A DNA stretch of 48,226 bases from an uncultured Bacteroidales bacterium (GTDB lineage Bacteria > Bacteroidota > Bacteroidia > Bacteroidales > S143-33): positions 1 to 48,226 of the forward strand of contig CAZWVR010000005.1 in assembly GCA_964637235.1 (NCBI GenBank), read 5' to 3'. The position numbers and the translations under genes are program-made. The notes beneath the pieces were generated by a model. The model saw only the letters and a list, made by a program, of their open reading frames with translations. It was not told the DNA's origin and did not search any database. Below are positions 2,613-26,817 of the stretch, one piece after another; positions within the stretch are counted from its first letter, which is position 1, and the number at the start of each line of letters is the position of its first letter.

Positions 2613-3344
2613 ATGAAAAAAACACTTTATTTTTTAGGCATTATAGGTATAATCTTTGCCTTTTATGGTTGTAGGAAAGGAAAAGAAGATCCTTTCATTT
2701 CCCTTATGTCTCGGAAAGCCCGTTTAACTGGAACGTGGCAAATTTCGGGTGCCCAGTGGACAGAAGAAGTTTATTGGGATAAAGGAATACCTACGTTATT
2801 CCCCTTGCCAAGCTCCGTATATAATCATTTGGGGATTCAAAAAGATCTCGAAGTCCAATATTACGATTATTACTATGAAAATAATTCATTAACAGAGATT
2901 GACAGAAATGATAATGATACAACAATTTATAGCCCATATACTTATACGATTACTTTTAATAAAGATAACACTTTTGAACTAAATGTTTATTCTAGAACTA
3001 AAAATTCGGATGGTTATTATTCAATGGATAGCTATACCTTGAATGGCTACTGGCATTTTTTGTCTAAGACCGAGGAAGCTAAAAATAAAGAGCGGGTTAT
3101 AATGGAAGTTACTAAATATTTTTATTCTTATAAAGAGCAATATGGTGAAGATGTTTATAGCGATACGGCTACGGCTAATATTTCAGGTTCTGGCTGGATG
3201 AATAGCGATATAGTACAAGTAATTGATCTTCTGGGTCTTTCTAATAAGACATTAAAAATTAGATATAACCAGTCTATTGAGCATGTTAATGGTGATTATT
3301 TTAAAATTTATGGTTGGGTTAGTTTTAAAAAAATAGAAAAATAA
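2613..3344 (+). CDS. Hypothetical lipoprotein, tandem paralog 1
   Basis: Lipobox FYGC, then RKGKEDPFISLMSRKARLTGTW. Confidence 0.8.
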   Translation: MKKTLYFLGIIGIIFAFYGCRKGKEDPFISLMSRKARLTGTWQISGAQWTEEVYWDKGIPTLFPLPSSVYNHLGIQKDLEVQYYDYYYENNSLTEIDRNDNDTTIYSPYTYTITFNKDNTFELNVYSRTKNSDGYYSMDSYTLNGYWHFLSKTEEAKNKERVIMEVTKYFYSYKEQYGEDVYSDTATANISGSGWMNSDIVQVIDLLGLSNKTLKIRYNQSIEHVNGDYFKIYGWVSFKKIEK

Positions 3345-3369
3345 AATATAAACTTTAAAATAAAAGGCT

Positions 3370-4104
3370 ATGAAAAAAACAATTTATATCTTAACAGTCA
3401 TTGCTTTAATTTTTGCTTTTTCAAGTTGTAAAAAGGGAGCAGAGGATCCTTCAATCTCTCTTTTATCTCGTAAAGCCCGTTTAACGGGAAAATGGGAAAT
3501 GACCTCAGGTCAATGGCAAACTATAAATTACACAGATAAAAAAGGTGGTTCTTTATTTTCATTGGGTAAAAAAGATGCTAATAGCTATGACACTTATATT
3601 TATGATAATAATAAACTTACGATATATAGTGTAATAGGAGATGAGAAAGATACAGTAATATACGACCCATTTGAATTTATTATGAGGTTTAATCGTGATC
3701 ATACATTTAGAATTTTAATTTATAGTAAACAAGTTAATAATGATTACAAGGATACTTATATTGAGGAGAACTGGGAGATAATTAAAGGTAATTGGTTTTT
3801 CCTATCCAAAGCAGGAGAATATAAGAATAAAGAGCGTGTTTATTTAGAATTTAGACAAGATAGCACTAAAGTTAAATATACTTATCAAAATGGAGATAGT
3901 GATATCTCCATAGATGTATGGAATTATTCTGGTACTAGTATGAATTATGAATATACAATGTTCTTTAATTATTATTACATATTAGACTTTTTGAAATTAG
4001 CAAATAAAGAATTAAAGATTAATATTAATTACAGTATAAAAGATGATAACGGGAAATTAGAGTATAGTGAACAGGGTACTATTACCTTTAATAAAAAGAA
4101 GTAA
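3370..4104 (+). CDS. Hypothetical lipoprotein, tandem paralog 2
   Basis: Lipobox FSSC, then KKGAEDPSISLLSRKARLTGKW. Shares GxWxFLSKxxExKNKERV with the upstream gene. Confidence 0.8.
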   Translation: MKKTIYILTVIALIFAFSSCKKGAEDPSISLLSRKARLTGKWEMTSGQWQTINYTDKKGGSLFSLGKKDANSYDTYIYDNNKLTIYSVIGDEKDTVIYDPFEFIMRFNRDHTFRILIYSKQVNNDYKDTYIEENWEIIKGNWFFLSKAGEYKNKERVYLEFRQDSTKVKYTYQNGDSDISIDVWNYSGTSMNYEYTMFFNYYYILDFLKLANKELKININYSIKDDNGKLEYSEQGTITFNKKK

Positions 4105-4126
4105 AACATGGTATGATAAAAAAGAA

Positions 4127-4298
4127 GGGGATGACTAAAAAGTCAAAAATAAAAAATTGTCACTAACACAACCTATTGATTTTTAAAATGTTATCTTTTT
4201 AAGGGTTGAATAATTTTTAAAAATATATTTATCAGTTATTTTACTGGTATCTAAGCCCCCTCTGATTACAAACAGAGGGGGACTTTTTAGACAGCCTC
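4127..4298. mobile_element. MITE-like element or IS remnant bounded by 18-bp imperfect terminal inverted repeats
   Basis: GGGGATGACTAAAAAGTC (4127-4144) matches the reverse complement of GACTTTTTAGACAGCCTC (4281-4298), GAGGCTGTCTAAAAAGTC, at 15/18 positions. No ORF inside; flanked by A and T tracts. Confidence 0.55.
4256..4281. terminator. Hairpin, likely terminator between convergent genes
   Basis: CCCCCTCTG-attacaaa-CAGAGGGGG forms a 9-bp stem followed by ACTTTTT. Confidence 0.65.
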
Positions 4299-4383
4299 TT
4301 TTTTATTTTTTTTCTTATAAAATTCGATCTAAATATTTATAATTTCCTTGACTTTTGTATATCCCTACTTATGAGCGTTAGTT

Positions 4384-5304
4384 TTATTTTTTTGTACGTG
4401 CTAAACGGAAGCCGTAATTATAATTAGTATATCCTGGTTTAGGTCCGTCTCTACTTGTTACTGTTGCATATTCGGGTCTATAATGCCATGAACCGCCTCT
4501 GATAACCCTATAACCAGTAGGAGTTTCGTTGACAGGAAAATCTACTGGGCTGTTTTTATAAAAATACGGAGAATAATAATCATAGCACCATTCCCAAACA
4601 TTGCCTGTCATATCATAGATACCAAGTTCGTTAGGCTTTTTGGTACCGACAGGTCTTGGGCCGGTTTGCATAGTTGTTTCATCTACCCAGCCTACTTCTG
4701 CGTAATTATTACTACCACTGAATCTATAACCTTTTGATTTTCTTCCACCTCTTGCTGCATATTCCCATTCAGCTTCGGTAGGTAAACGATAGCCATTTTT
4801 AGTAAAGTCGCATTTTATAGCACCGTCGTCGTCTATATAATAGCATTTTTCCAGACCTTCTTTTTCGCTAAGCCAATTACAATAAGCAATAGCATCATAC
4901 CAAGTAACGTGAAACATAGGGTAGTCTGGTTTCCAGCCCCACCATTTTTCAGGTCTTACGTCGTAATATTTTTTTGTTTCTGGGTGTCCTTGCCACCACG
5001 TAGAATCTGGCTCAGGAGGTAATGTATGAGTTCGATATGAGCTAAATTCGTTAAAAGATTTATCTTTAAGGAATTCCATATATTCTTTGACAGTAACTTC
5101 ATATTTACCGATATAAAAATCTCTAACTTTTACTTCATGGGCGGGATATTCATCAGGATCGCCTTTTCGGAGTTTGTCTTTGTATGGGTTGCCCATCATA
5201 AATTTTCCACCTTTAACAAAAACCATTTCTGGTTTTATTTGAGATTGGGCTTTAAAGAAACTAATGAATAGAGCAAGTATAAGTATTAAAACAGATTTTT
5301 TCAT
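4384..5304 (-). CDS. Formylglycine-generating-enzyme (SUMF1/FGE-sulfatase) domain protein, secreted
   Basis: Signal peptide plus motifs MVFVKGGKFMMG, YEVT, VTWYDAIAYCNWLS, YRLPTEAEWEYAARGG, NELGIYDMTGNVWEWC, RGGSW and GFRL. Confidence 0.92.
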   Translation of the reverse strand: MKKSVLILILALFISFFKAQSQIKPEMVFVKGGKFMMGNPYKDKLRKGDPDEYPAHEVKVRDFYIGKYEVTVKEYMEFLKDKSFNEFSSYRTHTLPPEPDSTWWQGHPETKKYYDVRPEKWWGWKPDYPMFHVTWYDAIAYCNWLSEKEGLEKCYYIDDDGAIKCDFTKNGYRLPTEAEWEYAARGGRKSKGYRFSGSNNYAEVGWVDETTMQTGPRPVGTKKPNELGIYDMTGNVWEWCYDYYSPYFYKNSPVDFPVNETPTGYRVIRGGSWHYRPEYATVTSRDGPKPGYTNYNYGFRLARTKK

Positions 5305-5347
5305 AGTATTTTTTTAAATATTAAACCCCAAAAAATAAATTTTATTG

Positions 5348-5851
5348 TTAACCTACTGCTTGATCATCTCCGAAATCGTCTTCTGGCGTTAAACCTTCTT
5401 CAATAGGTTCTCCTATTTCACTGTTTTTATGGTTATTATTATTCTGTGCTATTTGAGCTCTTGCCAGTGCATAAGTTTTTTTCTTATCCGAAGAAGTGAT
5501 ATGATGCATAACTTTTGCACCAAAATAGAAGGCTATCATCATTTGGAAAGCTACCATAAGTTCGTGTATTTCTTGTTCAAAGCCAACTACTCTTACGTTA
5601 ACTAATTCTAATATTACTACAACAAAAAGTAGGGTTAATGTTAGGATACCTCGGAATGTTCCTCTTGGCATTCCGAAAGTTTCATCTTGATACGGATTAG
5701 GATTTTCTTTTGTCCAAGGTCCGAAAGTGTATTTAATGAACATTATTATGATAAATACCAATACCAGAAGCAACCATAGGAATATTGGTATTAATACTTG
5801 CCATAAAAATTGTTCATAAGGTAAATCAATGAAAGTCATATATTTATCCAT
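5348..5851 (-). CDS. 3-TM membrane protein, holin-like
   Basis: Three hydrophobic segments, an FGMPRGTFR loop, an IAFYFG motif at the end of TM3 (recalls GTA_holin_3TM-type xFYFG) and an acidic tail. The holin call is inferred. Confidence 0.5.
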   Translation of the reverse strand: MDKYMTFIDLPYEQFLWQVLIPIFLWLLLVLVFIIIMFIKYTFGPWTKENPNPYQDETFGMPRGTFRGILTLTLLFVVVILELVNVRVVGFEQEIHELMVAFQMMIAFYFGAKVMHHITSSDKKKTYALARAQIAQNNNNHKNSEIGEPIEEGLTPEDDFGDDQAVG

Positions 5852-5869
5852 AGCATATTGTTTTTTAAA

Positions 5870-6310
5870 TTAGTGAAATAGATATGCACCTAAGAAAAAG
5901 GAGGCTATTGAAAAAACAATTCCTCCTCCGATGGCGTATTTCATATATCTGTTGTATTTTTCTGAGATTTTATTTGAACGCGTCAGATCTTCTTCACATT
6001 CTTGCTCCATTTTTTTATAGAAATTTCTATCGCTTTTTAGTGTATCTATCAATGATTGTTGAGTATTTAGCATTTCTTTTAAAGAGTCTACTTGTTTTTT
6101 TAGTAGTAGGTTTTGTTTTTTTTCAATTTTATAAAGTTTTGAAACTTTGATAGTTTTTTTTAGTTGTTTATGTGTTATAACCCATAAAGTATCAGTTTTA
6201 CTGAAAACTTCTTTTTTATTATTCGGAAGTATATAAAAAGGGTATTTTGGTTTTTGAGCGAAAGCCACTGTATTTATAAATATGAATATTATCAGCAGTT
6301 TAAATTTCAT
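5870..6310 (-). CDS. Exported coiled-coil protein with C-terminal TM (spanin-like topology)
   Basis: Preferred start ATG at 6310 (MKFKLLIIFIFINTVAFA-Q, SPI signal). Heptad-like region, then C-terminal AIGGGIVFSIASFFLGAYLF. Confidence 0.5.
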   Translation of the reverse strand: MKFKLLIIFIFINTVAFAQKPKYPFYILPNNKKEVFSKTDTLWVITHKQLKKTIKVSKLYKIEKKQNLLLKKQVDSLKEMLNTQQSLIDTLKSDRNFYKKMEQECEEDLTRSNKISEKYNRYMKYAIGGGIVFSIASFFLGAYLFH

Positions 6311-6320
6311 TTGTATAATT

Positions 6321-6734
6321 TTATGTACCGAATTCATCAATAAAAGAATCTTTAAGTTGGTCTAAGTCCATTTGTTCGACTTGATTGTTTACTTGATTTT
6401 TTTCCAGTTCCAGTTTATCAATTTTATCTTGCAAGATATTGACTTGTGCTTGTAATTGTTGGATTTTTTTCTCTTTTTGCTCAATAATAATTCTGTAATA
6501 TTCATCGTGTTTTTTTATCAAGTCTTGTCTATTTAATTGTCGTTGCAAAATATTTTTTGTAGTTGTAGTTTGACCTGAGGAAGCTTTTCTGAGGAATTCA
6601 AAAGGACCTGCGGCAGCGGCTAAGATAATAGATAGCCACTGCCAATTTGTTTTTATGTATCCTTGTTGATATAGCCAGCCCAGTATAAAGAATATTATTG
6701 TTAGTATTATAAGTATCCAAATCCATTTTTTCAT
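6321..6734 (-). CDS. N-terminally membrane-anchored coiled-coil protein (i-spanin-like topology)
   Basis: Preferred start ATG at 6734 (MKKWIWILIIL...). One or two TM segments, then a strong coiled coil (KIQQLQAQVNILQDKIDKLELEK). Confidence 0.5.
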   Translation of the reverse strand: MKKWIWILIILTIIFFILGWLYQQGYIKTNWQWLSIILAAAAGPFEFLRKASSGQTTTTKNILQRQLNRQDLIKKHDEYYRIIIEQKEKKIQQLQAQVNILQDKIDKLELEKNQVNNQVEQMDLDQLKDSFIDEFGT

Positions 6735-6744
6735 AGGCGTGTTT

Positions 6745-7560
6745 TTAGTCAATATCAATATATTTACCGAATACCCAACCTTGGATTTCAACAGCTACTT
6801 TGTACCAGCCATTGTGTTCGTCGATAATATAAACTTTTTTGCCTTTTGGAAGTGCTTTTGCGACTCGTGGTGCATTGCTATTTGGTTGAGATCTTATATT
6901 AAGGCTTGAAGCGATTACTCTACCTACAGTAGGTTTTTCTGGCATACCATCTTCGTCTCGTTTTGTGCCTAATAATCTTTCTCTAAACTTATCGAGAGGG
7001 AAAGCTGGACCTGGGTCTAATTTTCGTTTAGGGGCTATTTCTTCATGTCCGAGAATATATTTAATTCCGTAAGTTTCTATTAGAAGTTCTACTAATTCTC
7101 TGGCGGTATCAATTTGTTCCGGAGTATATATATGCCAGAATCTTGGTCTTGTTTCGTTTCTATGTATTGCTTCAATGACTTCTGAGGGGTTAACGGCTTC
7201 TCCGAACCAAGCTCTGAATATATTGCCACTTTTTGTAAGAGGTCCGTAATTAACCATTTCAATGCCGATAGAGTATTTATTAAATCCGCTACGTCCTTTA
7301 TAATAGCTTCGTCCTGCATGCCAAGCTATAAGGTTAAAAGGTACTAATTGAGTGACGGTTCCGTCTCTGTCAATTATGACGTGTGCGGAGGCTCTTGCCC
7401 TTGGATTTGTAAGGGTATTTAAAGATGTCCTAAAAGGTCCTGCTGTATAGTGCATAATTACAGTATCCAAGTCACCTGGCTTAAATTCGCCGCTATGGTT
7501 CGGGGAGGGAACCATTTTTTTTACTTTTGTCCCGGAGAGGATATGATTTTTTATTTCCAT
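6745..7560 (-). CDS. N-acetylmuramoyl-L-alanine amidase (Amidase_2) with C-terminal SH3b domain, no signal peptide
   Basis: Motifs VIMHYT, SAH, AWHAG, SIGIE, GHEEI and RKLDPG. C-terminal LNIRSQP...GWYKV...GWV is an SH3b pattern. The N-terminus is not hydrophobic. Confidence 0.93.
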   Translation of the reverse strand: MEIKNHILSGTKVKKMVPSPNHSGEFKPGDLDTVIMHYTAGPFRTSLNTLTNPRARASAHVIIDRDGTVTQLVPFNLIAWHAGRSYYKGRSGFNKYSIGIEMVNYGPLTKSGNIFRAWFGEAVNPSEVIEAIHRNETRPRFWHIYTPEQIDTARELVELLIETYGIKYILGHEEIAPKRKLDPGPAFPLDKFRERLLGTKRDEDGMPEKPTVGRVIASSLNIRSQPNSNAPRVAKALPKGKKVYIIDEHNGWYKVAVEIQGWVFGKYIDID

Positions 7561-7577
7561 AACGTAAAAATTTTATT

Positions 7578-7585
7578 CAAATATA
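7578..7585 (-). promoter_or_regulatory. Bacteroidota -7 promoter box (TATATTTG) upstream of the amidase cassette
   Basis: CAAATATA on the + strand, 17 nt upstream of the ATG at 7560. Confidence 0.55.
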
Positions 7586-7618
7586 CAAAAAAATATAAAA
7601 AATGGAATATTTTTTTGA

Positions 7619-8392
7619 TTATTTTTTAAATCCTGTTTCTAAATTTGTCCCCACTATTGTTGGGCTTACTACATTAGGAGGTCCTTCATAACCACGTCGT
7701 TCAGTAGTTATAAGGATAGCTATTCTATCTTCATAAGGGCTGATGAAACAGCCTTTTAAAACTGCGTTTAAGATATAGTCTACCTTAGGCATTTTTTCTT
7801 CGTAAGCCACTTTTGAGCCTTTATTTGGAGATTTAATAACTATTTGCAAACCTGTAATTATATCTAAATTCATATCTGTATCGTGCTTTATTTGTTTGTG
7901 CATTTCTATTATGTAGTCTTCGCCTTTGTATTTAAAATATGGGGATTTTAGGGTGAAATGTTTCTGTTGTATTATTCCATATTGATTTAGTTTACGTTTT
8001 ATTAGTGTATAGTAACTTTTCCATGTACTTGCGCGCAGATCGTTTATATCTTCTCCACCGTTAAGTTCAATCATTTTTTCTTTATCCCAGATTATTTTAT
8101 TGTTAATCAAGTCTTTAATGACAAATCTTACTATATAAGCTCCGATAGCTTCGTCTGCTGGTTCTAATATATATGCTAATTTACCATCTTTTGACCAGCC
8201 AATAGGAAAAAGTTTATCTACCAGTACATCAGTAGATTGATTATAGACAAATTCTTCGGGGAAGAAGTATTCTTCGGTAATTGTATCGCTTTTTTGTATA
8301 TTATCTTTATTGTCTGATTTATTTTTGTTAGATTTACAGCTGCCTATAATCAATGTAATAGCAATAAGTGTAGCGAGTAAAATTCTATTCAT
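7619..8392 (-). CDS. Hypothetical lipoprotein
   Basis: Preferred start ATG at 8392 (MNRILL...). Lipobox IGSC, followed by a K/N/D-rich linker and FPIGWSKDGK. Confidence 0.75.
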   Translation of the reverse strand: MNRILLATLIAITLIIGSCKSNKNKSDNKDNIQKSDTITEEYFFPEEFVYNQSTDVLVDKLFPIGWSKDGKLAYILEPADEAIGAYIVRFVIKDLINNKIIWDKEKMIELNGGEDINDLRASTWKSYYTLIKRKLNQYGIIQQKHFTLKSPYFKYKGEDYIIEMHKQIKHDTDMNLDIITGLQIVIKSPNKGSKVAYEEKMPKVDYILNAVLKGCFISPYEDRIAILITTERRGYEGPPNVVSPTIVGTNLETGFKK

Positions 8393-8452
8393 TTTTTTAT
8401 ATTTTGCACACACAAAAATGAGAAAAAAAAGTATAAAAAAAAATTTTTTAAA

Positions 8453-9436
8453 TTGAATAATTTTTTAGAGTTAAAAAATTTAGTTATTGGGTATAGAAAG
8501 CCTTTAAGCAAACCTATAAATTTATCGGTAGGGGAATATGGTCTAACAGGTTTATTGGGCATTAATGGTATAGGAAAAACAACATTATTAAAGACTATTG
8601 CTAATCTTGTAAAACCATTTGAAGGAGAGGTACTGTTCAGGGGTAAGAAGCTTTCTGAATATTCTATTAAAGTTCTTGCACGTTATATAACATATACGAA
8701 TAATATAATGTTTCGTGCGGGTATGCTTGTTAGTGATTTTTTAGAATTAGCTTTTTTGCCGTATTCTTCTTTTCCGGAAAAGTTGAGAGATAAAAAAATA
8801 GCCTATATTGCTGAAAAATTCGAGATTGTTGATTTACTCTCTAAGCGAATGGAACAATTAAGTGATGGCCAAAGACAATTGATAAATATTGCGCGCATTC
8901 TACTTCAAGATACTGAAATAGTTTTATTAGACGAGCCGTTTAATTTTTTAGACATAAAAAATATATTTTTCGTTTTGGGCATTTTGAAGGAATTTTCTTT
9001 AAAAGGTAAATTTATTATTTTTTCTACTCATCAGTTGCGTATAGCTCTTCAATATTCTGATTTTGTGTGGGTTATAAAAGATGGTGAACTATTATATGGA
9101 GTTCCTGAGCAGATGGCTTTAAACAATGTTTTTGATAATTTATTTCATACCAATAATATTATTTTTAGCCATAAAGAGATGGATTTTCAGATTAACCAGA
9201 ATCATAAGCAGTATAAAATACAGCTTATATTCGGGAAGGATCATAAAAGGAATATGTGGACAGAGCGATTTTTGTATCGTAAAGGTTTTCAGATTGTGTC
9301 TGATGCAGAGGTTTCTGTTAAGATAGATAAAGAATATTGGTTTTTACAGACGAAAAAAGAAACATTTACGTTTAAAGATTTGGGAGGTTTAAGCAGAAAG
9401 CTAAATGAATTGTATAATATTTCAAACAATTGCTAA
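8453..9436 (+). CDS. ABC transporter ATP-binding protein (FecE/BtuD-like)
   Basis: Walker A GINGIGKT, signature LSDGQ, Walker B VLLDEP and H-loop STH. TTG start. Confidence 0.88.
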   Translation: MNNFLELKNLVIGYRKPLSKPINLSVGEYGLTGLLGINGIGKTTLLKTIANLVKPFEGEVLFRGKKLSEYSIKVLARYITYTNNIMFRAGMLVSDFLELAFLPYSSFPEKLRDKKIAYIAEKFEIVDLLSKRMEQLSDGQRQLINIARILLQDTEIVLLDEPFNFLDIKNIFFVLGILKEFSLKGKFIIFSTHQLRIALQYSDFVWVIKDGELLYGVPEQMALNNVFDNLFHTNNIIFSHKEMDFQINQNHKQYKIQLIFGKDHKRNMWTERFLYRKGFQIVSDAEVSVKIDKEYWFLQTKKETFTFKDLGGLSRKLNELYNISNNC

Positions 9437-16434: not shown

Positions 16435-18300
16435 TTATTCTTTATTTAGCAGTAATTTTTCAATACCTTTTACAGCTCTAAAACCGTCTGCAATAGCACT
16501 TATAGCATCAGCGGTTCTATTGACTGCGTCACCACCGGCGAATATTTTAGGATCTCCGGTTTGTCTGAATTCATTAGTTTTAATTCTACCTCTTTCAATT
16601 TGGATTTTTTCCTTAAATTTATCTGGGATAAATGAGTAATCAGCACCTTGACCGATTGCGGCAATGACAGCAGTTACTTCGATTTCAGTTTCAGAGCCTT
16701 CGATAGGCACAGGACGTGGGCGACCGCCTTTTGGATCAGGAACCATTTCTGCTTTTAGGTACACGAGTTTTTTAACGTGTCCGTTTTCATCACCGATGAT
16801 TTTTACGGGGATACCTTGTGGTATAATTTTTACGCCTTCGGCTTCTGCACCTTCTATTTCTTCCCAATCAGCGGGCATATCTTTTACTCTACGGCGGTAT
16901 AGAATAGTAACATCAGCGCCGAGACGTCTGGCAACGCGAGCTGCGTCAATAGCTACATTTCCTCCACCGATTACAACTACTTTATCGCCTATTTCTACAA
17001 TTTTGTTTGGTTCTTTTATTTTAATAACATTACCTTTTTCATCTCTTACGAAATTGCCATTTTCGTCTTTGAGGAATACGTTATTTACTTCTCGCAAGAA
17101 GTTTATTGCTTGCATAGCTCCTTCAAGGTCTTCTCCTTCAATTCCGAGTTTCCAACCTACTTGAAAACCTACACCTATAAATACAGCGTCGAAGTTGTTG
17201 TATATTTCTTCAAAAGAGATGTCTTTACCTACTCTTGTATTGTATTTTATTTTGACGCCGACTTTTTCCATATATTCAATTTGCTTATACAAGCTATCTA
17301 CTGGGAAACGATATTTAGGTATTCCCCAGGTTATCATTCCACCGGCTTTATTAGTTGCTTCAAAAACAGTGACGTCAAAACCTTTAAGTTTGAGATAATA
17401 AGCAGCGGTAAGTCCAGCCGGACCTGCACCTATAATACCGACTTTAAAGCCATTATCTGGTTTAATTTCAGGATTTATGATTTCGTAAAGTATATCAGCA
17501 GTTTCGGCACGTTCAATAGCGTATCTTTTTAGCCATCTGATAGCGAGAGGTTCTCCGCGTTTCGTGACAGCGCATACTTCTTCACATCTACGTGTACATA
17601 CTTTACCACACATTTCGGGCAGCGGGTTATTATCGTATATAATTCTGATAGCATCTTCGTCGTTTCCTGCGGCGATAGCATTTATATATTCCGGTATATG
17701 CATATGTTCAGGGCAAGCTTCTGTACAAAGTCCACAACCGAGACATCTGCGAGCTTCTTCGCGTGCCTGTTCTTCTGTATATCCTAAAACAACTTCTGCG
17801 AATGATTTTACTCGTTCTTCACCTTCTAATTCAGGCATTGGCACTCTATGGAGCTCTGTAAGAGTAGTTTGCGGGGTACTTATAAATGATGCTCTTTGAT
17901 AGCCATCAGGATTACTAACGCCGGGTGTCCAGAGGAAATCCTCAGGATTTTCGCTAACAAAGATATAGTCTTTTGTCAGACGTAATGAACCAGTAGGGCA
18001 TACTTCTACGCATAGTGCACACCAACAACATCTTCCGTTATCTACTCTTGGTCTTAGACCTGAGTCTCCTTTTTTCGGTTCAATGCCTTCAACAGGCACC
18101 ATATCAATAGCCTTGTTCATACATATTGTGGAACAATTCCCACAGCCAATACATAGTTCCAGATCATTATAGTGTAGTCCTCTGTATCTATCGGAGGCTT
18201 CAACTTCAATTTGCGGGACTAATAGAGTATGGGGCTTTTTGCCCAATTGTGATAATGTTGTTAAAGGTTGAACCGTACCTTTTATATTGAAAAATCCCAT
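16435..18300 (-). CDS. MbsN/NuoI-like 2[4Fe-4S] subunit fused to a GltD-like FAD/NAD(P)H oxidoreductase
   Basis: N-terminus has [17 protein letters not shown] and [12 protein letters not shown]. Then CLGC..CTEACP and CGKVC...CEEVC (GltD/DPD Fe-S domain), GAGPAG (FAD), [11 protein letters not shown]...YRR (NADPH-type site) and FAGGD. Confidence 0.9.
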
Positions 18301-18317: not shown

Positions 18318-19421
18318 TTAACGTTCTATTTCGGGTGGGCATGTACCCAGACTATTCATAATAACCGAAACATCGGCAATATTTTGCCCGACAAGTAAAT
18401 TTTCCAAGAGAGTTATTGCGTGTACGTAAGCAGGACCTTTAACGTGTACTCGTCTTGGATGTGTAGAACCATCGCTTACTACGTAATAAGCAAATTCACC
18501 TCTTGCAGATTCAGTTTTTACGAAGGCTTCTCCTGGAGGAAGTGCCCATTTATGCGGATTAGGTATTTTATTGTAATATTCGCCAGAAGGCATTTGTTCT
18601 AAGACTTGCCTAACAATATTTATTGATTGTCTGATTTCGAATCTTCTTATAAGAGCTCTTGTCCATACATCTCCGCCTTTAAAGGCTGGCACTTCAAATT
18701 TTAGCTTATCATAAACTTCGTAGGGTTCATCTATTCTGACATCACTTCTTATTCCACAAGCACGTAGAGGAGGTCCTACAACGCCCCATTCAATAGCTTT
18801 TTCAGGGTCAATAACGCCGATGCCTTGTGTTCTTTTTTGGAATATTGCATTGTCAAACATTAATCTGTCGTAATCGTCAAGTCTTTTTTCCAAGTAATCC
18901 ATTACTCTGAAAGCTTTATCTTTAAATCCTTTTGGAAGGTCTCGTCTTACGCCACCTGGCCATATATACATATGATAGACACGTCCACCTGTAAGATCTT
19001 CAAATAGGTCAAGGATATAATTTCTATCGCCGATAGACCATTGACCCATAGTATATAGTCCAGTAGATGCTGCTTGTCCACCATACCAGAGGAGATAAGC
19101 TTGTATTCGTGAGAGTTCCAGTACTAATACACGAATATATTTAGCGCGTTCAGGGACTTCTCTTCCTTCAATTTCCTCCACTGCTCTGGCATAGTTTTCT
19201 TCATTTGGATCTGGTTCAGGAACGCAGATACGGCATACTATTGTGAAGCTTTGTAGCCAGTTGCGGCGTTCCATTAGTTTTTCAAAACCTCTATGTAGAT
19301 ACCCCACGTGAGTAGTGGCTTTAACAACAGTATCGCCTTCTACTTCAAGGCGTACCATCATATTACCGGTGATACCGGGGTGTTGGGGTCCTAAGTATAT
19401 TGTAGTTGCTTTTTTTCTCAT
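18318..19421 (-). CDS. MbsL/MbxL (NuoD-like) subunit, without a complete [NiFe] ligand set
   Basis: Motifs GPQHP, GYLHRGFEK, RICVPEPD, GGVRRDL, ESARGE and C-terminal CPPEIER. Confidence 0.9.
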   Translation of the reverse strand: MRKKATTIYLGPQHPGITGNMMVRLEVEGDTVVKATTHVGYLHRGFEKLMERRNWLQSFTIVCRICVPEPDPNEENYARAVEEIEGREVPERAKYIRVLVLELSRIQAYLLWYGGQAASTGLYTMGQWSIGDRNYILDLFEDLTGGRVYHMYIWPGGVRRDLPKGFKDKAFRVMDYLEKRLDDYDRLMFDNAIFQKRTQGIGVIDPEKAIEWGVVGPPLRACGIRSDVRIDEPYEVYDKLKFEVPAFKGGDVWTRALIRRFEIRQSINIVRQVLEQMPSGEYYNKIPNPHKWALPPGEAFVKTESARGEFAYYVVSDGSTHPRRVHVKGPAYVHAITLLENLLVGQNIADVSVIMNSLGTCPPEIER

Positions 19422-19984
19422 CGTGTATATTTCTTTGCAAATTCTGGTATTTCTTCACCTGTACGATTAGCAATAGTCTCACGGACATCTTGTGCGTCCT
19501 CTCTACCAGGACGAGTGAAGTATGTCCGTTTGACATAAGAGAGAGTATCAAAATCTTTACGCATTGGAGGTATGTCTTTCCAGTCTTCAAGTATAAATTC
19601 TCTTTCACCTACAAGACCATCAAATTCAATTCCGAACATTTCTCTTATTTCACGTTCATATGTATTTGCTTGTCTCCAAATATAGTCAATATTAGGAGCG
19701 ACAGGGTTATCTCTGTTGATATAGATTTTGTTAAGGATATTTATTTTATCTTTCGGCGACCAAGTGATATATACAAGTTCAAATTTATTGTCTTCTATCC
19801 AATCTACGCAAGAGATATGTGCCAGATGGATATATCCGAGTTTTTCTTTTTCATAAAGTAGTAATTGTTCAATTGTATCTTTATTTGTTTTTGCTATTAC
19901 TCTTTTATTTCGTTGGATTTTTAGCTCTACTTTGTCGCCGAATTTTTGTTTTATTTGCTCTATTAGAATGTTTTCTTTTTCCAT
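19418..19984 (-). CDS. MbsK/MbxK (NuoC-like) subunit
   Basis: Motifs YEREIREMFGIEF and PPMRKDF. Confidence 0.9.
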   Translation of the reverse strand: MEKENILIEQIKQKFGDKVELKIQRNKRVIAKTNKDTIEQLLLYEKEKLGYIHLAHISCVDWIEDNKFELVYITWSPKDKINILNKIYINRDNPVAPNIDYIWRQANTYEREIREMFGIEFDGLVGEREFILEDWKDIPPMRKDFDTLSYVKRTYFTRPGREDAQDVRETIANRTGEEIPEFAKKYTR

Positions 19985-19995
19985 AATTAGATTTT

Positions 19996-20541
19996 TTACC
20001 AGTTATAATCGGGCATTACCCAGTTATGAATAATTTTCTTTTGATTTTGCCTGTAGAATTCAAAGTTTTCTTTATAACGTTTCCATCCGTCAGCTCTACC
20101 TTCTTGAATAAGTTTTTGGAGTTTTACGAAGCCGGCTATAACAGCTTCTGGTCTTGGCATACAGCCGTTAATATATACATCTACAGGCAGGTACATATCT
20201 AAGCGATTTATTGTATTGTAGGAGTCCCAATACATACCGCCATTGATAGTGCAGGAACCAAACCCCATAACATATTTTGGATCTTGCATCTGTTCATAAA
20301 CTCTTATAACACGTTTGAGAGTTTTTGTAGCCAGATACCCGGTAATTAATAAAACATCGGCTTGTCTTGGAGTAGCGGCACCTCTGATACCGAAACGTTC
20401 GGCATCGTAGCGAGATGTCATTGTAGGGGGAATTTCTATTGCTCCACACCCTGTCCCGTATGCTAAAACAAATAGAGAGTTTTTACGGGCAAAGTTTTTA
20501 ATTATTTCAATTATGCTTTGTGAATATTTATCGTTAATCAT
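19996..20541 (-). CDS. MbsJ/MbxJ (NuoB-like) [4Fe-4S] subunit
   Basis: Motifs TGCGAIE, RYDAERFG, PRQAD, GSCTINGG and PVDVYINGCMPRPEA. Confidence 0.92.
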   Translation of the reverse strand: MINDKYSQSIIEIIKNFARKNSLFVLAYGTGCGAIEIPPTMTSRYDAERFGIRGAATPRQADVLLITGYLATKTLKRVIRVYEQMQDPKYVMGFGSCTINGGMYWDSYNTINRLDMYLPVDVYINGCMPRPEAVIAGFVKLQKLIQEGRADGWKRYKENFEFYRQNQKKIIHNWVMPDYNW

Positions 20542-20552
20542 TTTTCAAGATT

Positions 20553-21461
20553 TTAGAATATTGTTGCTTGAATTAAACCGATTAAGCCGAAAAATAGAGG
20601 CCAACCCCAGAAATATCTTACTGCCTGTTCAGTTCTAAATCTTGGAGAAACTATGCTCCAGAGAACGGGGTACATATAAACAGCAAAAGTTTTTAGTATG
20701 AGCGTTCCTAAGTTTGTAGCACCTGCCATAAAAAGATCTACAAATAGAGTGAGTTTAACAAAGGCGAATATAGAGCCACTTGTCATCATCAAACCGAGAT
20801 ATTTCCCTCCAAATTCAGAGATTGGTCCGGAAGCCAATTCAGCAGGGGCTCCAACAATATCAAAAGGCGAATATCTAAACATCCCTGGCAGTGTCATCAA
20901 AGCAGCTAAGAAAGCAAATGGAGAACTAAATAAAAACCATGTATGTTGTTGTTGCTGAATAGCTACTAAATCAGAGACTGATGTAGTTTTATATTGAATC
21001 ATTAAACTGATTAGAGCTATCACCCAAGGTATTTCAAATCCAACCATTTGGGTTAGCCCTCTGCTAACACCGATAGTAGAGTTAGGGTTTCCCGTTTGAC
21101 CAGCACCCAATGCCATACCCAAAGGTCCAAATACCATAAGGTAAAGTAATAAGACCAAGTCGCCATTAAAAGTCAAATTTGTAAAGAAGTGACTACCATA
21201 TACTATCGGAATAAACAATAGTGTAGTAATGGACATGGCAATTAACCATAGAGGTGCCAGATGTTGCATTATTCCATGATTGATGTTTGAAGTCTTTGCC
21301 CAAAGTTTAGTAACATCAATAAAGTTCTGATATATAGGAGGACCTACACGATTTTGTGCTCTTGCTATAATTTTTCTACGAATTCCGGCATAAGTCATTC
21401 CCACAATAAAGGCTATTAATGCCGATACAGTTGCACTTAATATTAATTTCCAGATTTCCAT
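20553..21461 (-). CDS. MbsM/MbxM (NuoH-like) membrane anchor subunit
   Basis: Motifs RKIIARAQNRVGPP, PFDI...ELASGPISEFGG and PRFR; multi-TM. Confidence 0.92.
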   Translation of the reverse strand: MEIWKLILSATVSALIAFIVGMTYAGIRRKIIARAQNRVGPPIYQNFIDVTKLWAKTSNINHGIMQHLAPLWLIAMSITTLLFIPIVYGSHFFTNLTFNGDLVLLLYLMVFGPLGMALGAGQTGNPNSTIGVSRGLTQMVGFEIPWVIALISLMIQYKTTSVSDLVAIQQQQHTWFLFSSPFAFLAALMTLPGMFRYSPFDIVGAPAELASGPISEFGGKYLGLMMTSGSIFAFVKLTLFVDLFMAGATNLGTLILKTFAVYMYPVLWSIVSPRFRTEQAVRYFWGWPLFFGLIGLIQATIF

Positions 21462-21473
21462 TGTTCTTTATTT

Positions 21474-23309
21474 TTATAGGAAAAGATTTTTTAGCAGAAA
21501 CAAAATAGTTAAAAATATAACCACATAAGTGGCATAAGTTTGAGTATTACCGTTGTATATACGGCGTAAGAATTGGAAAAAGTCTTCCAGTCCAGTAGCT
21601 ATTTCATTGTAAAATTTAGATATTTTGTATTTTAATATTGGTCCTAATGCTCTTTGAAATGGACGATAAAAATCTACGGAATAGTGATAATTATCATCAG
21701 GACGAACAGGCTCACCTGCATTAGCAATATCTTTTGTAGTAACGTAGCGTGTATTTTTCCGTCCGTAAAAAGTGATTATAATCAAAAATAGAATGAATAC
21801 AGAAGCTAATGTAATAATAGTTGTTTTTAACCATATACTATTGTGCCACTCGTTTGTCAATACAGAAATTTTATAAGTAATATCAGTGAAGCCCAAATCA
21901 CCCATAGCATTTGCTATTGGTTTAAAAATCAGTCCAGGGAATGTACCTAATACTATTAGCGTAATAGCAATCAAAAGCATTGGGACTACCATTAATGGGT
22001 GAGCTTCTTTTACGTTTTCAAATTCTTTTTCTTCTTGACCTAAGAATATCCCAAATAGAAATCTAAAACTGTAAAGAAAGGCAGCTGTTGAAGATAAGAA
22101 AATTAGGATTACTAAATATACATGTCCTGATGTTATTAAAGATTCATAAAGCATCCATTTACCTACAAAGCCAGCTAATGGAGGCACTCCTGCCAGTGCA
22201 ATTATAGATATCAACGCGGCAAAGAAGGTATATGGCATTTTACGAATTAAACCTCTGAGTTCATTGAAATCAGTTGTTCCAGTTTGTTTTTCCACTGCAC
22301 CGGCTACCATAAAAAGATTTGCTTTGAACAGACCATGCATAAGTGCTAAAAATATTCCTGCAAAAATACTTAATTTAGTACCTATACCTAAACCTGTAAT
22401 AATATAACCGAGCTGTCCAATAGATGAATATGCAAGCAGTTTTCGGATATCATCTTGGAATATAGCATAGAATGTTGCTAAAACAGCAGTTATAGCACCG
22501 AACCAAGCTAATATAACACTACCAGTATGCAAACCTGAGTGGTTAAACATATTTATTGCTACAAATCCAATACCGTAGATACCCATCTTTGAGAGAGCCC
22601 CTGAAAATACATCTGTATATGCCATAGGAGCATTTGAATATGCATCAGGAGCCCATACATGCAGTGGCATCATAGCACTTTTTACTGCAAAGCCGGTTAG
22701 GAGCAATAATCCAATCAATAGTTGCATTCCGAGAGATAGGTTCGGAAATGCAGTGAAAAATTGTTCTATGTATAGAGTGCCTGTAAGTTTATTTATTAGT
22801 ACAATTCCCATAAACATAGAATATGCTCCTAATGCGCTGAATATCATATATTTCAATCCTGCTTGGTCAACATTCCTACCATTGTATATAACTAATAGAT
22901 ATGAAGACCATGTCATTATTTCCCAAAAGAAAAATAATGAGACAAAGTCTTTACTTACTAAAATTCCCAGCATTGCCCCAATAGAAAGCAGAAAATTAAA
23001 GAAAAACCAAGCTTGTCTATATTTGCTTTCCTTTTTCATATAAGGGATAGCATATAACAAAGCCAAAGACGCTAAAACAACAATTAAAATAGCAAAAATC
23101 CATGAATAGTCAGTAAATTCCCAACCTAAGGATAAATGTATTAATGAAAAATTAAATTCAGAGAATCTTACAGTGAAAAAATAAATGGGCAATGCTAACG
23201 CTTCTATCAATACAATTATTTGTCCCAATAATTTATTTAATACAAATGCGATATATGTAATTACGGCTCCTGCAAAAAGCATTAAAAGTAGTAAAACAAT
23301 AGTGTTCAT
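21474..23309 (-). CDS. MbsH'/MrpA-D-like ion-translocating subunit with C-terminal lateral-helix region
   Basis: Motifs FFWE, PLHVWAPDAY, SKMG, LLAYSSIGQLG and GVPPLAGFVGKW; extended C-terminus with GNTQTY plus a TM. Confidence 0.88.
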   Translation of the reverse strand: MNTIVLLLLMLFAGAVITYIAFVLNKLLGQIIVLIEALALPIYFFTVRFSEFNFSLIHLSLGWEFTDYSWIFAILIVVLASLALLYAIPYMKKESKYRQAWFFFNFLLSIGAMLGILVSKDFVSLFFFWEIMTWSSYLLVIYNGRNVDQAGLKYMIFSALGAYSMFMGIVLINKLTGTLYIEQFFTAFPNLSLGMQLLIGLLLLTGFAVKSAMMPLHVWAPDAYSNAPMAYTDVFSGALSKMGIYGIGFVAINMFNHSGLHTGSVILAWFGAITAVLATFYAIFQDDIRKLLAYSSIGQLGYIITGLGIGTKLSIFAGIFLALMHGLFKANLFMVAGAVEKQTGTTDFNELRGLIRKMPYTFFAALISIIALAGVPPLAGFVGKWMLYESLITSGHVYLVILIFLSSTAAFLYSFRFLFGIFLGQEEKEFENVKEAHPLMVVPMLLIAITLIVLGTFPGLIFKPIANAMGDLGFTDITYKISVLTNEWHNSIWLKTTIITLASVFILFLIIITFYGRKNTRYVTTKDIANAGEPVRPDDNYHYSVDFYRPFQRALGPILKYKISKFYNEIATGLEDFFQFLRRIYNGNTQTYATYVVIFLTILFLLKNLFL

Positions 23310-23321
23310 TTGAATCTTTTT

Positions 23322-24806
23322 TTAATTTAAACCTAAGTTTGGCAAAACGCTGTGAATATAATTTTGCTTATCTATTAAGGCATCAGTAGCCTGTTGAATA
23401 TATGAAGTGATTAAATCAGGATAAAGACCTACAACTATAATTGTCAATCCTAAGATAAGCATAGCAGCCATAGCATTCCAGCGGGGTTTTTGTACTTGAT
23501 ATTTTCCGGTATATTCTCTAAAATATAATCTGTGAATCACTCTGAAGTAATAAACTATTTCCACAATGCTGACAGAGAGTATCAAAGCTAATAGAACTAC
23601 CATACCTTTATTAGCAGTAGCCATTAACAGATATAATTTACCCCAGAAGCCAGAGAAAGGAGGCAATCCTACAATAGCGAAAGCTCCCAGAGAAAATAAC
23701 AAAGCAGTTAATGGCATTTGTTTGCCCATACCCTCTAAATCGCTGATATATTTTACTTTTGAGTTATATACCAAGAAACTGGCAGAAAGGAATAATAGAG
23801 ATTTAATGACAGCATGATTAAATAAAACAAATAAACCTGCAAAAATTCCCAATTGAGTATTTAATCCGAAAGCAATCATAATTAAGCCAATCTGCCCTAT
23901 ACTAGAATATGCTAACATTCTTTTAATTTTTTCTTGTCTAAGCGCTATTGTTTCAGCAAAAACCAGTGTTATGACGCCCATAATTAGCAAAGTCTTATAG
24001 GCAGAAGATATATCAAAGAGGGTATAAATCATTCTAATTAGGGCGTATAGACCAGCCTTTGAAGTCATAGCTGCAAATACAGAACCAATAGGTCCGGGAG
24101 CTTGTGAGTAAGCATCGGGAGCCCAGCCATTTAATGGGAACATTTCGGCTTCGATGCCAAAGCCTACAAATAATAATATGAAAATCAGAACTTTTAGTTT
24201 CGGAGGTATTTTGTCAATATTTGCAGCAATATCAGCCATGTTTAAAGTTCCTAAATGACCATAAATCAATGCAATTCCCAGAAGAATAAACACAGAGGAG
24301 AAACTCCCGACAATAAGATATTTAAATGCAGCTTCGGCACCATCTCTTCCGCGATAAAAAGCTGTTAGAGAATAAGCACTGATTGAAGTTATTTCCAAAA
24401 ATACGAACTGGTTGAAAATATCACCAGTAATTACTACGCCGATACTTCCTGCTACAATTAGCATTAGTAATACAAAGTATTTAACGGCATTGTCAAATTC
24501 TACCTTTTTGAATAAATAGCTATATGCCCATACCAAAAATGCCAGAAGTGATATTACAGTAGCAATAAATCCACTGAAAGGCGTAAACATCAGATTGATA
24601 CCCAAAGGAGGTGCCCAACCTGCTATCTCTGTAATAATGGGTTTATCTACGCTGGTTTGCATGAGTAAAACTACTGCATTGACCGCCAAGTATGCGAATA
24701 ATAAACCGGGAATTATTCTAATTAAACTTTTGTGTATTTTGCCAAATAATGGCAACAAAAAAGCGGTCAATAACGGCAATGCTATAAAATAAATTGGACT
24801 TACCAT
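23322..24806 (-). CDS. MbsH/MrpD-like ion-translocating subunit
   Basis: Motifs GWAPPLGI, TGDIFN..VFLE, EAAFKY, WAPDAY, KRMLAYSS and GLPPFSGFWGK. Confidence 0.9.
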   Translation of the reverse strand: MVSPIYFIALPLLTAFLLPLFGKIHKSLIRIIPGLLFAYLAVNAVVLLMQTSVDKPIITEIAGWAPPLGINLMFTPFSGFIATVISLLAFLVWAYSYLFKKVEFDNAVKYFVLLMLIVAGSIGVVITGDIFNQFVFLEITSISAYSLTAFYRGRDGAEAAFKYLIVGSFSSVFILLGIALIYGHLGTLNMADIAANIDKIPPKLKVLIFILLFVGFGIEAEMFPLNGWAPDAYSQAPGPIGSVFAAMTSKAGLYALIRMIYTLFDISSAYKTLLIMGVITLVFAETIALRQEKIKRMLAYSSIGQIGLIMIAFGLNTQLGIFAGLFVLFNHAVIKSLLFLSASFLVYNSKVKYISDLEGMGKQMPLTALLFSLGAFAIVGLPPFSGFWGKLYLLMATANKGMVVLLALILSVSIVEIVYYFRVIHRLYFREYTGKYQVQKPRWNAMAAMLILGLTIIVVGLYPDLITSYIQQATDALIDKQNYIHSVLPNLGLN

Positions 24807-25192
24807 TTTAGATTTTTTATTTCGTCAATATTTGTTGTATTATGATGTCTGTATAGACGCACAATAAGAGCTAATCCTACGGCTGTTACACCAAAACCGA
24901 TGACAATAGCCGTAAGAACGAGAGCCTGAGGAACGGGATCTACCATCTGTACACTTATACCTTTGTGGATTTTCTCCATAATTGATGGAGAAAAAATGGG
25001 TGCTGTACCGTTATTTATGTATCCTATCGAAATCAATAATAGATTTACACCAGAATCTACAATGGAGAATGAAAGCATAATTTTTATTAAATTCTTTTTA
25101 GTAAGCACCCCATAAAAACCTATCATTATTAACAGAAGCGAAGTACCATAAAAAGTATAAGTAAGTATCTGATTTATAGTTAATTCACTCAT
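24800..25192 (-). CDS. MbsG/MrpC (MnhC) subunit
   Basis: Motifs KNLIK and DPVPQALVLTAIVIG. Confidence 0.93.
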   Translation of the reverse strand: MSELTINQILTYTFYGTSLLLIMIGFYGVLTKKNLIKIMLSFSIVDSGVNLLLISIGYINNGTAPIFSPSIMEKIHKGISVQMVDPVPQALVLTAIVIGFGVTAVGLALIVRLYRHHNTTNIDEIKNLKW

Positions 25193-25925
25193 TATTATTA
25201 TTTTTAGAATTGGTATTTACATCGACAGAAATGGACAAAAGAGTATCCAATATACCAGTAAGTTCTGCTGCAACTTTAAATCCGACTGCAATGTATATCA
25301 ATGGGATAATACCACCGCTGAGTAAATCATTAAGTTTCCCGGTAAGCATAAAGTTTTCAAGAAAGTCTTTACCAAGTATCAAACCCATTATACCTAATCC
25401 TGCAAAAGTAGCTCCTGCTAATGATTCAATCCAAGTGATAGTATTATGTTTTACAGCAAATTTTCTATATGCTATTAAAAGGAATAGGTATCCTGTAGCA
25501 ATAATTACACCACCTTGAAAACCTCCACCGGGTGTTAAGTGTCCGTGAATGAATACATAGCCTCCTAATAAAATCATCAGAGGGAATAGAGCTTTACCTG
25601 CAACCTGAACTATCCTACTTGCCTGAACAGAACGACGTCTTGGGTTAAGTTCTGTGTGAATTTCTCTACGACGAAATAATATACTTGCTAATCCTGTTGA
25701 AGCTAAGAATAGTACAGTTACTTCTCCTAAGGTATCAAAACCTCTATAATTTACTACTACTGCCGTCACTACATTAGCTACTTGTAAATCTTTGGGAGTT
25801 TTTTCTATATAAGCTTTTGCTACGTTCATTCTATTTTTTCCAAATTGCACACTTAAAAATCCTCCTATTAGAATGAAAAAGATATAAGCAAGTAGGATAA
25901 ATATTATAACCCCTTTTAGTTTCAT
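25185..25925 (-). CDS. MbsE/MrpB (MnhB) subunit
   Basis: Motifs NVVTAVVVNYRGFDTLGE and GHLTPGGGFQGG. Confidence 0.93.
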   Translation of the reverse strand: MKLKGVIIFILLAYIFFILIGGFLSVQFGKNRMNVAKAYIEKTPKDLQVANVVTAVVVNYRGFDTLGEVTVLFLASTGLASILFRRREIHTELNPRRRSVQASRIVQVAGKALFPLMILLGGYVFIHGHLTPGGGFQGGVIIATGYLFLLIAYRKFAVKHNTITWIESLAGATFAGLGIMGLILGKDFLENFMLTGKLNDLLSGGIIPLIYIAVGFKVAAELTGILDTLLSISVDVNTNSKNNNNE

Positions 25926-25940
25926 TTGATAAAATTTTTA

Positions 25941-26533: not shown

Positions 26534-26534
26534 A

Positions 26535-26807: not shown

Positions 26808-26817
26808 AGTATATTTT

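Follow-up and report, generated by a model that had tools for sequence, protein, structure and literature searches.

A conserved chromosomal operon of Bacteroidales pairing a signal-less amidase with a holin-like three-helix membrane protein

In phage holin-endolysin pairs, including those with class I holins such as lambda S, the holin is a small membrane protein with at least one transmembrane (TM) helix and a charged cytoplasmic C-terminus, is encoded beside the endolysin and produces lethal or permeabilising lesions that let the hydrolase out. Spanins are either two-component (Rz/Rz1) or unimolecular (T1 gp11); of the two components, the o-spanin is anchored in the outer membrane as a lipoprotein through a lipobox Cys, and the i-spanin is a type II (N-in/C-out) protein with a periplasmic coiled coil. 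Type 10 secretion combines a holin-like protein and a peptidoglycan hydrolase, in genetic linkage, with cargo that has no signal peptide. The systems of Serratia (ChiW/ChiX), Salmonella (TtsA) and Yersinia entomophaga are reported to be phage-derived, with cargo (chitinases, toxins) alongside and with canonical spanins (PMC4259817, PMC10847048, PMC13721041). The subject of this report is a four-gene operon, g1-g2-g3-g4, on the minus strand of a 48,226-nt stretch of DNA from an uncultured Bacteroidales bacterium (contig CAZWVR010000005.1; the whole stretch is called the window), together with a lipoprotein gene, g0, upstream of it.

Like a class I holin-endolysin pair, the operon sets a signal-less enzyme (g1) beside a three-helix protein (g4) predicted to lie N-out/C-in with a charged C-terminal tail, and catalytic domains are swapped between related systems; unlike such pairs, it is chromosomal and conserved across phyla. 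As in type 10 secretion, a chromosomal holin-like protein and a peptidoglycan hydrolase lacking a signal serve the cell that encodes them; the differences are that neither a conserved cargo nor a lipobox spanin is present and that the g4 module has no detectable relative in phages.

A long-standing question is how bacteria prevent their own wall-cutting enzymes from reaching the wall too early, and how holin-type proteins can pass folded enzymes without killing the cell is also at issue. Comparison of sequences gives good support to a coupling of the g1 hydrolase to the g4 module. The system is testable, its enzyme-membrane link being readable in sequences, both as fusions and as a tail-SH3 pair kept or lost together, and it supplies a function-linked context for three domains whose function is unassigned, the g4 module, DUF5675 and DUF4230. 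No published account of a g1-g4 system was found within the limited body of literature searched, and the family seems to be undescribed.

Coupling of the amidase to the membrane module

A preliminary description of the window had read the four genes as a stand-alone lysis cassette (endolysin, two spanin-like proteins and a holin-like protein). All four co-oriented open reading frames (ORFs) were found as described there, with gaps of 10, 10 and 18 nt at g1/g2, g2/g3 and g3/g4, respectively. Read from upstream to downstream, the features are:

7619..8392, minus strand: g0, lipoprotein of 257 amino acids (aa) from the ATG at 8392; the ORF opens at a GTG at 8413
7578..7585, minus strand: TATATTTG, a match to TAnnTTTG, 17 nt upstream of the g1 ATG
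6745..7560, minus strand: g1, Amidase_2 zinc amidase with C-terminal SH3b, 271 aa (Pfam)
7006..7473, minus strand: Amidase_2 catalytic domain of g1, residues ~30-185
6754..6909, minus strand: SH3_3 domain of g1, residues 218-269, the proposed dock for the g4 tail (Pfam)
6321..6734, minus strand: g2, TM helix, second hydrophobic helix and coiled coil, 137 aa from its ATG (alignment of 26 sequences)
5870..6310, minus strand: g3, signal peptide, small domain, coiled coil and TM anchor, 146 aa from its ATG (alignment of 25 sequences)
5348..5851, minus strand: g4, three-helix membrane module with charged tail, 167 aa (alignment and AlphaFold 2 (AF2) model)
5351..5377, minus strand: last nine codons of g4, an acidic tail ending A-V-G (tail/g1 association across loci)

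Relatives were sought in 41 genomes of the order and, with one genome per species, in a wider scan that gave 97 relatives, of which 80 were kept (70 with at least 2.3 kb and 60 with at least 3.4 kb of upstream DNA). Among the 41 genomes g4 was present in 12, with 5 of 5 positive in the same family and 6 of 35 positive among the order's other families. Orthologues of g1 over its full length (52-77% identity) occurred in exactly the same 12 and in none of the other 29; three further genomes of the 41 gave weak partial g1 matches alone. The order g1-g2-g3-g4 was preserved in 9 of 9 loci from eight related genomes, with ORFs of the size of g2 and g3 between g1 and g4, and g0 lay upstream in eight of these nine.

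In the wider scan g1 was found on the same strand in 67 of the 70 loci with sufficient upstream sequence. The preliminary description had proposed neighbourhood conservation as a check, and with g1-g4 together in these 67 the unit is not a stray. A tblastn match to g0 was present upstream of g1 in 46 of the 60 loci with the longer flank and in none of the Calditrichota/KSB1-type loci. Because the median gaps are only 15, 0 and 35 nt (63 loci), the four genes are considered an operon. All 80 records are, by title, metagenome-assembled or uncultured (Bacteroidales, Bacteroidota, Calditrichota, KSB1 and one "Chlorobi"). In a tree of the g4 core, 66 of 69 Bacteroidota-type rows fall in one clade (91/99), separate from the Calditrichota-type rows. 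In relatives the operon has housekeeping genes next to it, the one exception being an rve transposase-type gene in L141. Which genes flank the operon varies from locus to locus, and no conserved cargo gene adjoins it in the related loci. The g1-g4 cluster is a real, conserved, cell-encoded and vertically maintained operon.

The C-terminus of g4 varies with the presence of g1. It is Gly in each of the 67 loci with g1 but in none of the three without it, and in 64 of the 67 the protein ends in [AS]-x-G after acidic residues; the g1-less loci (L078, L082 and L089) have other g4 ends. The three tail losses do not form one clade but are three changes on the g4 tree, forced by well-supported branches, and a single deletion cannot remove both g1 and the tail since they occupy opposite ends of the operon. 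In a second, longer type of module the end F-x4-[AS]-x-[GQMSD] was present in 17 of 18 modules with an SH3 neighbour, and in none of five modules whose long upstream DNA showed no neighbour of this kind. From these associations we infer that the g4 tail may dock the SH3 domain of g1.

A g4 profile search of 1.84 billion representatives returned 201 matches. Those weaker than approximately E 1e-14 are to proteins of 250-740 aa, in which the loop-TM2-TM3 core alone is aligned. When 32 of them were scanned, seven proved to have a hydrolase domain after the module: Muramidase (PF11860) in six, three of these also with DUF5675 and one also with Amidase_3, and Peptidase_M15_3 in one further protein. 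No family was assigned in 24 of the 32, and the C-terminal domain shared by most of the family-less fusions matches solved "Endolysin" chains (7q4s, E 1.9e-7). The linkers between module and hydrolase are long, of low complexity and rich in Pro, Ser, Glu and Lys; none of the 32 proteins contains an SH3 domain. Reciprocally, a profile built from the fusions retrieves g4 from the genome to which the window belongs (E 7.8e-29). DUF5675, which a 2026 preprint groups with C82-type peptidases (10.64898/2026.04.11.717860), shows weak matches here to the Tlde1 domain. At least five kinds of predicted wall-hydrolase domain (muramidase, M15 peptidase, Amidase_3, DUF5675 and endolysin-like) are fused to relatives of g4. 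When 401 Bacteroidota genomes were sampled, the window's own genome was the only one with a match to the module part of the profile, the other 17 matches being to the hydrolase domain only.

A survey of related clusters covered 80 metagenome loci. In 15 of these a full g1 homologue (E 1e-99 to 1e-113) is followed by a g2-like membrane hairpin and then by a module of 225-275 aa, the hairpin gene encoding ~78 aa alone or being fused to DUF5675. In six more the neighbouring protein shares the g1-type SH3 only; three of these are cut by the contig end and three are whole, namely one GH25+PG_binding_1+SH3_3 protein and two with an unannotated catalytic domain and SH3_3. None of the whole SH3-hydrolase neighbours has a signal peptide. 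By their predicted domains, these signal-less neighbouring hydrolases keep one type of SH3 while the catalytic domain changes. Genes resembling g2 and g3 also lie upstream of fused modules in several loci. The preliminary description had coupled the hydrolase to the last membrane protein, and this is borne out by their presence in the same 12 genomes, by the fusions of g4 relatives and by the joint loss of tail and amidase.

In six of eight long loci (L146, L166, L118, L127, L135 and L141; e.g. L146:6632-8712) the module is followed by two DUF4230 genes, and the genes around them belong to housekeeping or type IX secretion rather than to phages. The pair consists of a lipoprotein-like protein of ~200 aa and one of 480-720 aa; L151, L189 and L156 have the module and the DUF4230 pair with no hydrolase. 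This suggests a larger envelope system, with the window carrying one of its variants. A search for DUF4230 in genome G000 gave no match, but neither did the control genomes, which deprives that negative of weight. At L118:1743-4953 six tandem ORFs of 143-148 aa, without Pfam families, are located upstream of the g2-DUF5675 and fused module-Muramidase-DUF5675 genes.

Ends of a comparable kind were seen in phage membrane proteins unrelated to g4 (L200:5081-5440, L201:4343-4771, L202:4337-4771 and L203:4337-4774), each with an acidic stretch and an [AP]-x-G end. Two alphaproteobacterial phage groups have such a Gly-ended neighbour beside a g1-like amidase-SH3; five other records do not, four having no membrane-protein neighbour and one having neighbours that end otherwise. 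Because the cases are too few they were not counted as support; docking may be older than the g1-g4 system, or the resemblance may be chance.

The encoded proteins

The first gene had been described as an Amidase_2 with SH3b and no signal peptide, and this holds. Pfam places Amidase_2 (E 4.7e-30, 105 bits against a cut-off of 26) and SH3_3 (E 9.8e-12) in g1, and the N-terminus is not hydrophobic. Residues H37, E101, H172, K180 and D182 are invariant among 26 sequences; we take them to be the putative equivalents of the AmpD zinc ligands and catalytic residues. The protein is 46-79% identical across families. Its closest solved relatives are AmpDh2, AmpD and AmiD (E 1e-16 to 1e-18), and it scores 100.6 bits against the NCBIfam AmpD equivalog NF008758, below the 143-bit cut-off. 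With AmpD, AmiD and AmpDh2 (PDB 1j3g, 2bh7 and 4bj4) it shares the Amidase_2 fold, its putative zinc and catalytic residues being invariant; it differs in the C-terminal SH3_3, where AmpD has no extra domain and the others have a PG-binding domain, in occurring only together with g4, and in missing the AmpD equivalog cut-off. Judged by its sequence, the g1 product is a zinc amidase of the AmpD/AmiD type that is intact, carries an SH3b domain and lacks an export signal. Second g1 paralogues in two genomes that also possess the operon, G013 and G020 (L198:3973-5025 and L199:2727-3569, both minus strand), are 44-46% identical and stand alone, with no module genes nearby; one of the two has two SH3 domains.

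g1 also matches PHROG amidase/endolysin families (phrog_1794, E 5.8e-40), and full-length homologues of 30-40% identity exist in phages of Alphaproteobacteria, 24 of 55 matching records covering at least 80%. The amidase-SH3 endolysins of the Roseobacter phage DSS3P8 gp056 type have the full-length architecture of g1, with 34-40% identity over 94-99%. In two phage groups small membrane proteins follow the g1-like gene, as they do here, and DSS3P8 has a canonical TM-coiled-coil protein and a lipobox ORF; none of these alphaproteobacterial cassettes has a g4-like module.

The product of g4 is a member of a new, strongly conserved family of three-helix membrane proteins of 150-180 aa. Among 20 homologues 45 columns are invariant; the invariant stretches include the loop NPNPY..ETFGMPRG.FRG, the motif AFQMMIAFYFG.KVMHH, the final Gly and polar residues around helices 2 and 3, with E82, N85, R87, E92, E97 and Q103 being the conserved polar residues in or near membrane helices. 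The preliminary description had a three-TM protein ending in IAFYFG; three helices are indeed predicted, while IAFYFG sits within the third helix and is followed by a charged tail of 55 residues. The AF2 model (predicted local distance difference test, pLDDT, 66.7) places the helices at residues 12-42, 65-87 and 92-140 and packs TM2 and TM3 tightly as a hairpin. Lys and Arg number 2-8 in the 25 residues after TM3 and 0-2 in the TM2-TM3 loop, and the stretch directly after helix 3 is rich in them in 20 of 20 sequences, K113 and K125 being invariant. Because the Lys/Arg counts place the first loop and the tail inside, g4 is predicted to be N-out/C-in.

No PHROG at E 0.1 or better and no NCBIfam was found for g4, the best Pfam being Colicin_V, below its cut-off (18.4 against 29.3 bits), and Foldseek with the model gave no match. 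In an Atlas search the feature matches were all below threshold; the structural lead, a 452-aa Bacteroidota cluster with Muramidase (TM-score 0.60), was subsequently confirmed by sequence. A tblastn search of 50,697 phage records (INPHARED) gave no g4 match at E 1 or better, and of 54 and 194 pattern matches for a g4-like module in IMG/VR none was confirmed. In common with holins, g4 has three predicted helices and a charged, Lys/Arg-rich tail that is predicted to be cytoplasmic, and is encoded in the same operon as its hydrolase. Unlike holins, it falls in no holin family, is absent from the phage collections searched, has this length and this number of invariant positions, has a C-terminal peptide tied to the SH3 of a hydrolase, and has relatives in which module and hydrolase are fused.

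The second gene was expected to encode an N-terminal TM helix and a coiled coil, and the third a signal peptide, a coiled coil and a Gly-rich C-terminal TM helix without a lipobox; both are as expected. In g2 the alignment of 26 sequences adds a second conserved hydrophobic helix, with an invariant Pro44, between the TM helix and the coiled coil. Since Lys and Arg follow this second helix, the two are predicted to form a hairpin, with the coiled coil on the cytoplasmic side. The signal peptide of g3 ends AFA|QK, and its homologues have AxA|Q-type sites, i.e. sites of the signal peptidase I type followed by Gln; a small domain (YP..PG...DTLWV), a coiled coil predicted to be periplasmic and the Gly-rich TM helix follow. 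No Pfam, NCBIfam or PHROG family was reached by g2 or g3, the weak PHROG matches being to an Rz-like spanin for g2 (E 0.024) and to a holin for g3 (E 0.0063), and no Pfam family is consistent across the 25 g3 members.

The likeness of these two proteins to spanins lies in the N-terminal TM helix and coiled coil of g2 and, for g3, solely in the combination of an N-terminal signal with a C-terminal TM helix, as in a unimolecular spanin. Unlike an o-spanin, g3 has no lipobox Cys, as judged by sequence and the alignment of 25, and its cleavage site is of the signal peptidase I type; g2, if the predicted hairpin is right, would differ from an i-spanin in having its coiled coil on the cytoplasmic side, and the two genes are not nested. 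The spanin pair suggested in the preliminary description is therefore disfavoured by the missing lipobox, by coiled coils predicted on opposite sides of the inner membrane and by the weakness of the PHROG matches.

All 25 aligned homologues of g0 have the Cys at position 19, and no Pfam, NCBIfam or PADLOC family was found for g0. The AF2 model (pLDDT 88.7) is beta-rich; Foldseek gave no match at E 0.001 or better (best TM-score 0.25), and the best hit of a wide VIA search (Z 6.4) is within the range of unrelated matches. It is probably an accessory part of the system in Bacteroidota and might act as an outer-membrane partner of g3.

Proposed mode of action and alternatives

The logic of a holin and an endolysin is the best fit to these data. 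We propose a cellular system that would tether a cytoplasmic hydrolase to a holin-like module and so gate its access to the wall, a proposal to which we give about an even chance. The g1 amidase would be made in the cytoplasm, and its access to the wall would be controlled by g4 as a dedicated inner-membrane module. The g4 tail would dock the g1 SH3 and hold the enzyme at the inner membrane face, as a non-covalent counterpart of the fusions; g4, helped or restrained by g2 and g3, would then let the enzyme across the membrane. In this arrangement g2 would be a membrane hairpin with a cytoplasmic coiled coil and g3 an exported, membrane-anchored coiled coil, perhaps meeting g0, and the outcome might be cell lysis or a local, non-lethal remodelling of the wall.

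Several points weigh against this proposal. The putative binding of tail and SH3 is proposed from sequence comparison, and the g1-less loci from which it is partly read are all of Calditrichota type, with L082 on a long branch. The hydrophobicity of helix 3 in g4 is marginal (1.5-1.8); should this helix fail to cross the membrane, both the tail and the hydrolases of the fusions would lie in the periplasm, and gating would be unneeded. The conservation of g4 goes far beyond that of known holins, and it is in no holin family. The best curated match of g1, although below the cut-off, is the cytoplasmic AmpD. Lastly, Amidase_3 was found in 37 and TatC in 36 of the 41 genomes, with or without the cluster, a distribution that gives no hint as to which need the system fills. 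A replacement of division (AmiC-type) amidases or of Tat by the cluster had been considered and was dropped, both being present regardless of it; no TatC match was obtained in genome G000, which is 87% complete.

A more ambitious version would make g4 a dedicated, non-lethal translocase of the Bacteroidota and Calditrichota for folded, signal-less peptidoglycan hydrolases, unrelated to Sec, Tat and known holins. Here g4 would recognise its passenger by docking of tail and SH3b or carry it covalently, with g2, g3 and the lipoprotein as gating or envelope-spanning parts; we regard this as unlikely. The origin favoured in the preliminary description, a domesticated phage lysis cassette with g1 as endolysin, g4 as holin and g2/g3 as spanins, used for lysis or type 10 secretion, appears quite unlikely. 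It draws on the PHROG families and full-length phage homologues of g1, on the weak spanin and holin matches of g2 and g3, and on a gene order that recalls a phage amidase followed by small membrane proteins. Against this, g4 has no PHROG match, no INPHARED match and no confirmed IMG/VR match and is conserved beyond what is usual for holins, and its tree separates phylum-level groups, the Bacteroidota clade standing apart. The neighbours are housekeeping genes both here and in relatives, g2 and g3 make a poor spanin pair on the grounds given above, and type 10 secretion is further disfavoured by the want of a conserved cargo gene beside the operon.

Two other explanations were weighed. In a cytoplasmic complex for muropeptide recycling, a g4 oligomer would import wall fragments for processing by tail-docked enzymes, namely the AmpD-like amidase here and an LD-peptidase-like DUF5675, an M15 peptidase or a muramidase in relatives. 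The AmpD score of g1, enzymes that are signal-less and predicted on the cytoplasmic side, the conserved polar residues of g4 in and around its membrane helices, and a conservation of g4 that is of a housekeeping kind, all suit it; yet g1 is below the AmpD cut-off and equally close to the sacculus-active AmpDh2 and AmiD, and the wall-binding architectures of partners (GH25+PG_binding_1+SH3, endolysin-like muramidases) suit polymeric peptidoglycan. A three-helix protein of 160 aa would be unusual as a transporter, the exported g3 and the lipoprotein would be left without a role, and occurrence is scattered (12 of the order's 41 genomes and 1 of 401 in the phylum sample), so that we give recycling a small chance. 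We think it improbable, too, that the proteins form a membrane-anchored periplasmic hydrolase complex, in which helix 3 of g4 would not be a TM helix, the tail and the fused hydrolases would face the periplasm, and g1, arriving by another route, would be held in place by the tail to remodel the wall. In its favour are the borderline hydropathy of helix 3 and fusion linkers of a length and composition that would suit reaching the wall, and in one phage group the membrane protein beside the g1-like amidase is i-spanin-like, so that its Gly-ended C-terminus would be periplasmic. The Lys/Arg-rich stretch after helix 3, however, is present in every g4 sequence and in the fusions, AF2 packs helices 2 and 3 as a hairpin, and neither g1 nor the other separate hydrolases have a signal peptide.

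An effector-immunity pair, with g1 as an antibacterial amidase aimed at rivals and g0 as its periplasmic immunity protein, is highly improbable. While a signal-less wall amidase does adjoin a conserved periplasmic lipoprotein, no secretion-system genes are adjacent, the identity of g1 across families is unlike that of fast-evolving effectors, those loci of Calditrichota type in which g1-g4 are retained have no g0, and g2-g4 would be left unexplained.

Surroundings and variants of the operon

The preliminary description had placed the operon behind a box of its own. A box, TATATTTG, is indeed present and is the sole minus-strand match to TAnnTTTG from 4152 to 8508, but its role as a promoter is weakly supported, because the 85 matches to the motif in the window amount to no enrichment (79.9 +/- 9.5 expected) and relatives rarely keep it, with 7 of 69 loci having one in the 70 nt upstream of g1, where the background is 4.3%. 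A scan for sigma-70 promoters and terminators gave no signal above shuffled sequence. A Pfam scan of the 38 further ORFs of the window found no phage, integrase or replication families, in agreement with the earlier reading that structural, integrase and replication genes of phages are absent; the families present are of the housekeeping kind (GH57, RNase H, NDK, a Mrp/complex-I-like operon, MurB and ThrRS). A known anti-phage defence system was also considered and dropped, since PADLOC models gave no match for g0-g3 and two chance-level matches for g4 (E 0.003-0.004).

Immediately downstream, at 4384-5304 on the minus strand, is a gene for an FGE-sulfatase-domain protein with a signal peptide, the start of which is 43 nt past g4. 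No terminator-like site and no TAnnTTTG box lie between the two genes, and they may be co-transcribed here. The gene gave a tblastn match in none of nine related loci and, among 80 further loci, only in L084, several kb downstream of g4.

Some relatives carry additional genes. In the Calditrichota/KSB1-type loci L069, L084, L086, L090, L097 and L078 an extra ORF of ~112-157 aa is situated between g2 and g3, and at L078:7429-8091 and L089:3180-3467 an extra TM-plus-coiled-coil gene comes right after g4. The g1-less locus L078 also encodes, divergently upstream of g2 (3326-5347, minus strand), a 673-aa secreted protein which by eye has a C-terminal tail of the type IX secretion kind and a SpoIID-like centre.

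Elsewhere in the window, two adjacent plus-strand ORFs at 2613-3344 and 3370-4104 encode proteins of 243 and 244 aa without a Pfam family, the second having a lipoprotein-like N-terminus. A long minus-strand operon at 18318-27360 specifies Mrp/Mnh antiporter-like proteins together with complex I-type 20, 30 and 49 kDa and NuoH-like subunits, and is followed at 16435-18300 by a ferredoxin/pyridine-nucleotide oxidoreductase gene.

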